Program-made: the position numbers and the translations under genes
Shown: positions 4-1,807 of the stretch, piece by piece
Layout of the letters: each line of letters begins with the position of its first letter
Numbering within the stretch: the stretch's first letter is position 1
The notes under the pieces: model-generated
What the model was told of the DNA's origin: nothing
The model's input: only the letters and a program-made list of their open reading frames with translations
Database searches by the model: none
DNA from: Thermoproteota archaeon
GTDB lineage: Archaea > Korarchaeota > Korarchaeia > B14-G2
Direction: 5' to 3'
Assembly (NCBI GenBank): GCA_037917675.1
Contig: JAVCBW010000029.1
Span: 1 to 22,329, forward strand
Length of the DNA stretch: 22,329 bases

Positions 4-1383
4 CTACCACCAGCCCTCTAATGTCCCTTTTCTCTTGCCTACTATCTCTGTGAACTTGTCTCTCACAGGCTTATAGACTTGGCTGAAGAACTTCTGCTGG
101 CTTAGCAGGGTCTCTCTTGGGAAGCTCTTCAGGTAGCTTAAGGCTGCCTTCCATGCCTCATCATAGCTCATGACAGACTCTATCCTAGGCTTTATCTGTC
201 TGTCATATTCTTCTGGAGTCTGCTCCATGTCTCCTATCTTGAACCAGCCTCTCTCAGAGACTATGGCTCCCTCGTCTCCGATGTATACCGTCCTCTCGCC
301 TGCCTCCTCTCCTCTAGCAGCCTCACCCCTCTCTGCTAGCATGGGTATAGGCCTCCTCCCTCTAGGCTTCCCTCTAGGGCCATAGTGCTTTGCCCAAGCA
401 TAGAATATAGCTCTGTTTAAGCCAAAGGACTTGGCTTTCTCGACGTCTCCTGTGAGCAGGTAGTATCTTGCTGCCTGAAGGAGCGCCATCACCTGGAATC
501 TCCCTAACTTACCTCCTTTAGCCACCTTACGCCTCCCTGTAGCAGGCTGAGCTCTTGTTCTAGGTGAGCTAGGCCAACCTGGGTAGCCTCCTATGGCAGC
601 TAGAGCCTTCTCAGCTAGGTGGTCTAGCTCCCCTTCCCTATGCTTCCTCCAGTCTATGCTGTGCCTTGGGCTCTGTGGGTCAGCCCACTCTAGCTCAAAG
701 CTGTCTAGCTCACTTGGCTTGAAGCACACGCAGCAGAGGTCTAGCTTCCTGTGTAGTGAGAGGGGGGCTGTAAAAACCCTCTTCAAGTCCATCATGTTCT
801 CTAGCTTAACCCCCCTATCAGCTAGCTTGCTGACTCTGCTCTGGACGCCTCTAGCTACATACTCTACAACAGAGTATGCTAGGTCTAGTGGGGAAGCTCT
901 CTGCAGTAAGCTCTGGGAGAATGCCTTCTCATGGATATGGACGTGTATGCCTTCACCACTCCACTTCAGGTATACTGACTCAGATACCCCAGCCTTCTCA
1001 AGGTAGTCTACTACAGCTCTAGCTGCCTCTAGCGCAGCCTTCCAGTCGCTTAGGCTACAGTCTATGTCCCACGTCGGAGTACATAGCTTGATGTTCTCCT
1101 TAGCCTCAGTATCCTCCTGCTTCTCAAGCTTCTCATACATGTTGGCTGAGGCATAGATAGATCTCGGCTTAAGCCCCCTATACCTGGTGAGAAGCTGGTC
1201 AAGCTCTCCTTCACTCGATAAGCTGAGAGGCCTCTGCTTCCTATCATATCTGAGGAAGAGCCTCCCCTCTCTGCTATAGCACTCTAGCGCAACCCATCTC
1301 CCTCTACAGAAGTCTGTGACCTCCTTCTTGACGAGCTCTCTGCTATAGTGCCTGAGAGCATCCTCAGGGTTCAAGGAAGCCAC
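4..1383 (-). CDS. AEP-superfamily (PriS/LigD-Pol-like) primase-polymerase domain fused to an uncharacterised C-terminal domain
   Basis: Motif I TWDID (hhhDxD), motif II KWSGEGIHVH (SGxGxH), and a motif III region ENMMDLKRVFTAPLSLH resembling the PriS DxxRxxxxPxSLH. A Pro/Arg/Lys-rich linker precedes about 165 extra aa. The start may be the TTG at 1374, with AGGTGG upstream. Confidence 0.8.
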   Translation of the reverse strand: MASLNPEDALRHYSRELVKKEVTDFCRGRWVALECYSREGRLFLRYDRKQRPLSLSSEGELDQLLTRYRGLKPRSIYASANMYEKLEKQEDTEAKENIKLCTPTWDIDCSLSDWKAALEAARAVVDYLEKAGVSESVYLKWSGEGIHVHIHEKAFSQSLLQRASPLDLAYSVVEYVARGVQSRVSKLADRGVKLENMMDLKRVFTAPLSLHRKLDLCCVCFKPSELDSFELEWADPQSPRHSIDWRKHREGELDHLAEKALAAIGGYPGWPSSPRTRAQPATGRRKVAKGGKLGRFQVMALLQAARYYLLTGDVEKAKSFGLNRAIFYAWAKHYGPRGKPRGRRPIPMLAERGEAARGEEAGERTVYIGDEGAIVSERGWFKIGDMEQTPEEYDRQIKPRIESVMSYDEAWKAALSYLKSFPRETLLSQQKFFSQVYKPVRDKFTEIVGKRKGTLEGWW

Positions 1384-1648
1384 CTAGATGAAGCTAGGTG
1401 CAGCTTCACAGCCTATGGGGAGGAGGCCTGCTGTAGCTGTAGGCGCTGAGAGCTTAGCTGCGTCTACTGCTATATCCGCTAGGATAGCATCCTCAATCCA
1501 AGGGTGGCTAGGGCAGAGCCTCCAGGAAGCAGCCATATCTGGTATGTAAGCTTGCTTTAGCTTACCTGAGAGAGCTTCACATCTGGCTGAGAGCATGAGG
1601 CTAGGAGTCTTAGCTAGGGTTATAGTAGGTAGCTTAGCAGGATTCCAC

Positions 1649-1807
1649 CTATCTCCTTGCTGCTGGAACCTCATATAAGACTCCTTCCTCAGAGAGAACT
1701 AGCACAGCACCACACTTCCTACACTTAAAGTACTTGTTGACTCCTCTTGATCCTCTCTCAGTTCCGAGAAGCACTACATCACCATGCTCACACCGTGCTT
1801 CAGCCAA
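1649..1807 (-). CDS. small zinc-ribbon protein, 52 aa (below the ORF-track cutoff)
   Basis: Hand translation MAEARCEHGDVVLLGTERGSRGVNKYFKCRKCGAVLVLSEEGVLYEVPAARR*, with CxH...CxxC knuckles. TTG start with GGTG upstream; TATA-like TTAAAAATA at 1845-1837; host-like codon usage. Confidence 0.75.
   Translation of the reverse strand: MAEARCEHGDVVLLGTERGSRGVNKYFKCRKCGAVLVLSEEGVLYEVPAARR

Follow-up and report, generated by a model that had tools for sequence, protein, structure and literature searches.

The window analysed here is the complete 22,329-nucleotide contig JAVCBW010000029.1, which belongs to a 1.78-Mb Korarchaeia genome of 62 contigs (92.7% complete). Our subject is a gene on its reverse strand, at positions 4 to 1,383, which encodes a protein of 459 residues. 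This protein was found to be an intact enzyme with the archaeo-eukaryotic primase (AEP) fold, and it represents a large unnamed family. It ends in the peptide KGTLEGWW, which resembles the PCNA-interacting peptide (PIP) box of archaeal replication and repair proteins. Binding of this tail to the sliding clamp PCNA is our best reading, with a probability of roughly 0.6.

The enzyme would consist of three modules, namely the AEP catalytic domain, a conserved C-terminal domain without a known fold and the PIP-type peptide KGTLEGWW. Leu455 together with Trp458 and Trp459 would insert into the hydrophobic pocket on the organism's only PCNA, with the KRK patch aiding the docking, and the enzyme would thereby be held at clamp-loaded primer-template junctions. 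Its most likely job there would be short repair synthesis on PCNA, whether gap filling, lesion bypass or restart.

The reading frame and its terminal peptide

The open reading frame (ORF) starts with GTG and ends in ...GKRKGTLEGWW, whereas the version of the gene caller has 456 residues. The reverse complement of positions 4 to 36 reads AAG AGA AAA GGG ACA TTA GAG GGC TGG TGG TAG, that is KRKGTLEGWW followed by a stop, which confirms the tail that the initial annotation had placed on this protein. The contig continues for 3 nt past the stop codon, and relatives of about 80% identity (L033 and L126) end in KRKRTLEDWW and a stop located mid-contig. Because the stop codon is present and these relatives share the same end away from any contig edge, the C-terminus is taken as genuine and its truncation at the contig edge is ruled out. 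The features of the gene are listed below.

4..1383, reverse strand: complete ORF including the stop codon, member of the unnamed AEP family (ORF list, translation, homology search)
574..1383, reverse strand: AEP catalytic domain, residues 1-270 (Foldseek and VIA-align on the model)
1060..1068, reverse strand: AEP motif I, D106-I-D108, both Asp invariant (60-sequence alignment)
943..960, reverse strand: AEP motif II, S142-G-E-G-I-H147, with S, G, G and H invariant (60-sequence alignment)
778..789, reverse strand: AEP motif III region, D199-L-K-R202, with D199 and R202 invariant (60-sequence alignment)
520..561, reverse strand: disordered interdomain linker, residues 275-288 (pLDDT <50)
34..519, reverse strand: C-terminal domain (residues 289-450), modelled with a pair of long helices, a small beta unit and a helical bundle
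28..36, reverse strand: basic patch K450-R451-K452, which precedes and overlaps the PIP-like motif (translation)
7..30, reverse strand: PIP-like motif K452-G-T-L455-E-G-W458-W459 at the extreme C-terminus (translation, family motif profile)

In the numbering of the PIP box, Lys452 stands at position 1 in place of the canonical Gln, Leu455 provides the L, I or M of position 4, and Trp458 and Trp459 provide the two aromatic residues of positions 7 and 8. The terminal residues 453-459 have a pLDDT below 50 behind a confidently predicted domain in the AlphaFold2 model, as befits an exposed and flexible terminus, yet the motif lies only four residues past the last helix. An Rfam search of the window returned no matches.

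Recurrence of the tail across the family

At least 407 archaeal species-representative genomes from TACK and Asgard lineages were found to encode a relative of this protein. A word-indexed search gave 633 proteins (746 when a second query was added) and an exhaustive search of representatives gave 265 clusters. The carriers include metagenome-assembled genomes labelled Bathyarchaeia, Methanomethylicia, Nezhaarchaeales, Thermofilaceae, Desulfurococcales, Nitrososphaeria, Brockarchaeota and 'Kor' isolates. Asgard carriers are found in Baldr-, Njord- and Odinarchaeota, Asgardarchaeum and Promethearchaeati, and one carrier, Pyrofollis japonicus (locus PYJP_08250), is cultured. In the phylum of the window 39 of 43 genomes have a match, 16 of the 39 being near full-length. 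The annotation is nearly always 'hypothetical protein', and neither Pfam nor NCBIfam has a model that passes threshold. No family-wide gene neighbourhood was observed among 80 loci, where the commonest neighbour cluster occurs at 8. A few members carry in-frame stops and are probable pseudogenes or assembly errors, namely L139 in genome G012 (one TAG), G008:C3:30419-31468 (three TGA and one TAG) and G035:C37:9756-11076 (several).

Beyond the last conserved helix (..VRDxFxExV) the family sequences vary in length and composition, and about half of them end in a recurring element in which [T/G/S]-L-x-x-[W/F]-[L/F/M] stands behind a basic linker. Examples of such tails are QATLDELFK, PEGLFKWLGG, RDLTRWF, KTLLDFFG, RTLDEIFG, TLLDWMKK and SILDFIGG. 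The pattern h-x-x-aromatic-hydrophobic was found in the tails of 30 of the 80 species-representative loci, whereas 2000 shuffles averaged 2.7 and never exceeded 9. One of the 30 (L104) lies downstream of an in-frame stop and is better left out. In a larger set of 272 non-identical full-length members, formed from pooled search hits of at least 400 residues and 79 loci, the motif is present in 143 as against 12.1 in shuffled tails (maximum 26; 1000 shuffles), which is an enrichment of about 11-fold.

The profile of these 143 motifs is a K/R-rich stretch, T/G/S, L (134 of 143), any residue, D/K/E, W/F (122 of 143) and L/F/M, often followed by K or G. Lys and Arg prevail at positions -7 to -2, the canonical Gln position is occupied by Gln in 14 motifs, and Trp stands at position 7 in 64. 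Between 4 and 42 residues (median 11) separate the last helix from the motif, which itself stays constant, and this combination is what short linear motifs on flexible linkers usually show. In a set centred on the Desulfurococcales, 54 of 82 tails match and the remainder are mostly h-x-x-W-V variants. The relatives at about 80% identity keep the T, L, W and W as well as the KRK patch, with changes confined to PIP positions 2 and 6.

A tree of 80 rows was built with FastTree after exclusion of the tails and was rooted at the midpoint, the true root not being established. The motif-bearing rows occupy at least seven separate places on both sides of this midpoint root, which suggests that the PIP-like tail is an old feature that was repeatedly lost, subject to the same caution about the root. 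The window and its relative of about 80% identity form a clade with 100% support.

The RNase HII of the same genome (L156, G000:C57:23740-24330) ends in ..RQSRLELSDY, which is similar to the ..QKQARLEL and ARLEF tails found on AEP proteins of sister genera (L129, L132-L134). These Q-x-R-L-E-L tails may be a non-aromatic variant of the clamp motif in the phylum of the window.

The tail motif in its own genome

The final 10 residues of the 1643 non-overlapping ORFs of at least 100 residues in the genome were scanned for [ST][LIM]xx[FWY][FWYLI]. This motif class starts at 255 of 505,859 positions, so that about 0.25% of proteins would carry it there by density. Seven carriers were found and identified by Pfam. 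They are PolB (TATLDQFF), the DP2 subunit of PolD (QSTLDQFI), Fen1 (RRSLEAWFK), a uracil-DNA glycosylase (UDG) of the family-4/5 type (EATLESFYT), a Hel308-type helicase (KRTLSDFLGS), a small PIN_9 protein and the AEP itself (KGTLEGWW). Both UDG and Hel308/Hjm bind PCNA in archaea. The review PMC4929162 counts PolB, PolD and Fen1 among the core PCNA partners of archaea and defines the PIP motif as QXXhXXaa. A single occurrence such as that on the AEP would not by itself stand out from chance, and the argument rests on the identity of the carriers and on the recurrence within the family.

Gln at position 1 is kept only in PolD DP2 and is absent from the PolB, Fen1, UDG and Hel308-type tails of this genome, so that Lys at this position is no weakness here. 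Trp at position 7 also occurs in the Fen1 tail (AWF). Archaeal PCNA clients (PolB, PolD DP2, Fen1, RFC and RNase HII, and the non-core NucS and NreA) resemble the AEP in that their peptide closes the protein chain and follows a basic stretch of poor order, with Leu at position 4 and two aromatics at positions 7 and 8, and this style is shared by the PolB, PolD, Fen1 and UDG of the same genome. The AEP tail differs from the canonical PIP box in having Lys for Gln, Trp-Trp for the F/Y pair and a linker of four residues.

Predicted complex with PCNA

PCNA (18-row alignment of the phylum) was co-folded with residues 420-459 of the AEP in three runs alongside three controls. The runs gave ipSAE values of 0.44, 0.45 and 0.41 with a partner pLDDT of at least 44, and they agree in at least 68% of contacts, while the best control scored 0.00. 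In the calibration, 58 of 80 solved complexes and 2 of 110 mismatched pairs attained the mark; passes at 0.60 or below came from only 7 of the 80 solved complexes and from both of the mismatches that passed. The verdict is 'weak support', so that the docking proposed in the initial annotation passes the co-fold weakly (0.44 against 0.00).

The initial annotation had also called recruitment by the clamp atypical for a primase. This agrees with the available text of PMC4929162, in which the word 'primase' has no occurrences among the archaeal PCNA partners reviewed, and with human PrimPol, which according to PMC4333378 does not interact with PCNA.

A single PCNA was found in the genome, and the start of its gene is irregular (L001 1473-1603, G000:C57). 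The frame is open from 1480 and its first ATG, GTG or TTG occurs at 1603, inside the Pfam match, while an ATG at 1473 lies in another frame and the PCNA of a sister genome starts with MLLGSV.... This is probably due to a 1-nt assembly indel near the start or to an unusual start codon.

Identity and fold of the catalytic domain

The label of AEP protein given by the initial annotation was borne out by fold and catalytic motifs and not by Pfam or NCBIfam thresholds. The AlphaFold2 model of the 459-residue protein, made from the 60-sequence alignment, has a pLDDT of 89.3, and its top Foldseek matches are all AEPs with E values of 2.3e-7 (Prim-PolC) and up. The best VIA-align match of the AEP domain is Prim-PolC (6sa0_A; Z 20.2, rmsd 3.2 over 247 residues). 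LigD-type polymerase domains, including that of the Methanocella non-homologous end joining (NHEJ) polymerase, score Z 19-19.8 (2fao, 5dmu and 2iry) and PriS/Pri1 score Z 15-16, within an overall range of 20.2 to 12.6 for these AEPs and CAPP. On the predicted model the domain has the AEP fold and is closest to LigD polymerase and Prim-PolC among AEPs.

Residues W105-D106-x-D108, S142-G-x-G-x-H147, D199..R202 and H211 are invariant in the 60 aligned family members, and they contain motifs I (DxD), II (SGxGxH) and III (an acidic residue) of the AEP superfamily. Sequence comparisons with named families fell below threshold. The Pfam scan gave LigD_Prim-Pol (PF21686) at 14.5 bits against a cut-off of 27.4 (E 0.026, residues 106-164 only) and did not list PF01896 (PriS) at E values up to 1, while the NCBIfam score for PriS (TIGR00335) was 13.9 bits, the cut-off being 143.5. 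The whole protein, searched by sequence against solved structures, had no matches at E values up to 10, and hhalign of the family profile against the PriS of the same genome gave a probability of 2% with motif III alone aligned. No Zn-binding Cys cluster was found in the family, where C220 is the sole invariant Cys and no CxxC pair occurs in the 60-sequence alignment, in contrast to the PriS of the same genome with its several CxxC pairs of the Zn-knuckle type.

The AEP shares with Prim-PolC of Mycobacterium smegmatis and the LigD polymerase domains its best structural match, a sub-threshold Pfam match and the lack of a Zn-knuckle. It differs from them in its low identity (13-16%), a genome in which no Ku was found, an extra domain of 160 residues, the PIP-like tail and an archaeal range covering TACK and Asgard lineages. 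With PriS/Pri1 (PF01896, TIGR00335) it has the AEP fold and catalytic motifs I-III in common, but it lies far below the thresholds of these families, lacks the Zn-binding insert and occurs in a genome where canonical PriS and PriL are encoded beside PCNA.

Relation to the replicative primase and possible role

PCNA, PriL (316 residues) and PriS (406 residues) are encoded together on contig C57. Identification of the AEP as the replicative PriS was rejected because this canonical PCNA-PriL-PriS operon lies on another contig, and the 459-residue protein is a paralogue of the replicative primase and no replacement for it. A comparable arrangement is known from human PrimPol, an AEP paralogue beside the replicative primase that acts in damage tolerance (PMC4333378, PMC5536071) and has a UL52-type zinc finger (PMC4027207). 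The AEP studied here has neither this zinc finger nor detectable sequence similarity to PrimPol.

A third AEP is present as a 298-residue AEP-only paralogue (G000:C58:1244-2140, L155, forward strand) with 46% identity to residues 8-295 (E 2e-82). It has no Pfam match and ends in a basic stretch and ..KLDEMIRRSLREF.. Its flanks contain a KaiC-like-looking ORF, a DEAD-type helicase fragment and an ORF of 628 residues with a P-loop and a long coiled-coil, which looks SMC/Rad50-like by eye.

No Ku (PF02735) and no Y-family polymerase (PF00817) were found in this genome at its 92.7% completeness, and no conserved ligase neighbour was seen across the 80 loci. Membership in an NHEJ system was rejected because no Ku was found in this incomplete genome. 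Y-family matches occur in 3 of the 43 genomes of the phylum. A PCNA-guided role in repair or damage tolerance fits the protein, since its fold is closer to the gap-filling and NHEJ polymerases Prim-PolC and LigD than to PriS, the canonical primase is encoded elsewhere, and neither Ku nor a Y-family polymerase was found. We propose such a repair role, which the initial annotation had put as gap filling or translesion synthesis, tentatively and at somewhat less than even odds. It rests on the fold ranking of a predicted model and on the absence of Y-family polymerases from an incomplete genome, and both genomes of the phylum that have a full-length PolY also carry the AEP family, all of which counts against it.

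A KaiC/GvpD-like P-loop ATPase remnant was found directly upstream of the AEP gene (1387-1596, reverse strand), inside an ORF of 96 residues at 1384..1674. The remnant resembles the opening ~81 codons of an ATPase gene, with 34.5% identity and an E value of 3e-5. The corresponding position in the ~80% relative L033 (2676-3989) carries this ATPase in intact form (437 residues), and roughly 1.1 kb of the gene has apparently gone from the window.

The C-terminal domain

The C-terminal domain contains an invariant segment, GRFQVM..QAARYY..KAKSFGLNRAIFYAWAK, and when folded alone it is predicted with a pLDDT of 85.8 and a pTM of 0.81. Its structural searches gave no fold match. The best Foldseek E value was 1.2 against the PDB and 0.52 against viral BFVD models, VIA-align against 48,161 chains reached a best Z of 4.0 (MukF, SegC), inside the noise range of the tool, and the ESM Atlas gave no usable match. 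The domain is therefore described as lacking a known fold match, as failed searches are no proof of a new fold. Its invariant basic and aromatic helices would suit the binding of nucleic acid or of a partner.

In one genus (g5; L143-L154) the family is split into an AEP-only protein of about 280-300 residues and a stand-alone C-terminal domain of about 165-190 residues, and in a one-contig genome the two halves are hundreds of kb apart (G013:C1:760793-761551 and G013:C1:361281-361760). This split suggests that the C-terminal domain can work in trans. The stand-alone domains keep the tail (GGLDELLS, GLDEYV), so that the tail travels with the C-terminal domain. Four further proteins of 366-432 residues (P0181, P0183, P0198 and P0203) end in the C-terminal domain behind about 200 N-terminal residues unlike the AEP domain of the query. 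Proteins of this type have PIP-like tails too (e.g., ..SLEEFFRR and ..ATLSDFFQRG), and they would represent another fusion partner for the C-terminal domain module.

Proposed clamp docking and its alternatives

Several observations weigh against docking of the tail on PCNA. The motif counts come from related sequences and from the best matches of two queries, so their independence is overstated, and 54 of the 272 members have a tail of 12 residues or fewer, which is too short for the motif. As 40 of the 80 tree rows were scored 'none', clamp docking cannot be essential to the core function of the family, about half of which is without the motif. The tree neighbours of the clade of the window end in QKQARLEL or KRPGGLEEA or are tailless, with the aromatics absent, and as judged from these endings the WW tail is genus-specific in this lineage. 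Only 3 of the 143 motifs have Trp at position 8, and PMC4929162 names F and Y as the canonical aromatics. The spacer of four residues is the shortest in the set, and the folded domain would therefore have to sit directly on the clamp face. In the genome of the window, the 7 of 1643 ORFs with the terminal motif exceed by little the 4.1 expected from density. Finally, the co-fold is weak, and its pass may reflect likeness to the PCNA-PIP peptide complexes already solved, such as 1RXM (cited in PMC4929162).

The claim of PCNA recruitment made by the initial annotation stands in part. The recurrence in the family, the PIP style of other proteins in the genome, the low-pLDDT tail and the weak co-fold speak for it, whereas conservation of TLxxW/F-W/F, which had been put forward as its check, was observed in about half of the homologues and fails in the sister genera of the window's clade.

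Among the alternatives, the one that survives best accepts that the tail binds PCNA and holds that the enzyme is a strict primase, a back-up or specialised primer maker that would reprime ahead of lesions or prime mobile elements. All three AEP catalytic motifs are intact, AEPs commonly combine priming with extension, and the C-terminal domain could play a part in holding the initiating nucleotide or the template, as PriL and PriX do for PriS. The enzyme nevertheless lacks the Zn-knuckle of the PriS in the same genome, its fold is nearer to Prim-PolC and LigD than to PriS (Z 20 against 15-16), and no conserved mobile-element neighbourhood was seen around a family whose commonest neighbour cluster is limited to 8 of 80 loci. 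PCNA is loaded on existing primer ends, which would suit extension over de novo priming. We consider a strict primase unlikely, with about one chance in five.

A second alternative is that the tail is a real docking peptide for another partner, such as PriL/PriS, RPA, the AEP-only paralogue of the same genome or another replisome protein. PIP-type peptides can serve other partners, because the C-terminal PIP of PolD DP2 in Thermococcus kodakarensis is critical for primase binding before PCNA takes over (PMC8096248), and this too counts against PCNA as the partner. The 298-residue paralogue offers a candidate within the genome, the separate C-terminal domain with its tail in one genus points to a modular system with possible trans interactions, and the PCNA co-fold is weak. 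The same motif style on the PolB, PolD DP2, Fen1 and UDG of this genome argues for PCNA, which is their common known partner (for PolB, PolD and Fen1 see PMC4929162), and the controls of the co-fold scored 0.00. A partner other than PCNA is thus held to be quite improbable.

Least probable is that the WW ending is a lineage-specific feature with no binding function, arising by coincidence or left over from an ancestral tail that has decayed or is drifting, for although the sister-genus endings, the 40 motif-free tree rows, the roughly 4 per 1643 ORFs expected by density alone, the rarity of Trp at position 8 and the shortest linker of the set would all agree with it, the ~80% relatives keep T, L, W, W and KRK with changes at positions 2 and 6 alone, the family recurrence is about 11-fold above shuffles, and five of the six other carriers in the genome are DNA replication or repair enzymes.

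Docking on PCNA as the preferred reading can be extended to the family as a whole. The TACK and Asgard archaea would then have a third AEP system in which a repair-type primase-polymerase, fused to or acting in trans with a new-fold, PIP-tailed clamp adaptor, is the missing PCNA-guided polymerase for gap filling and lesion bypass in the many archaea without a Y-family polymerase. This extension is speculative and we hold it to be rather doubtful.

Significance

PCNA-interacting peptides and AEP repair polymerases are each known, and an AEP carrying such a peptide was not found described. Our literature search found no description of a PIP-tailed AEP or of this family, which might be contained in the supplementary family lists of PMC5862659 (Kazlauskas 2018) and PMC11724360. 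In the available text of these two AEP-family papers a term search for 'PCNA' gave no occurrences, and the available part of a preprint on Asgard primases (10.1101/2025.10.19.683342) covers canonical PriS/PriL only.

The C-terminal domain, confidently predicted and lacking any structural match, merits study for its own sake, and biochemistry on the family is feasible because a cultured carrier exists in Pyrofollis japonicus. If the tail does dock on PCNA, the protein would be an addition to the known PCNA interactome of archaea and a concrete candidate for gap filling or lesion bypass in lineages without Y-family polymerases, and many thermophilic and Asgard archaea would possess a clamp-guided primase-polymerase beside their replicative primase.

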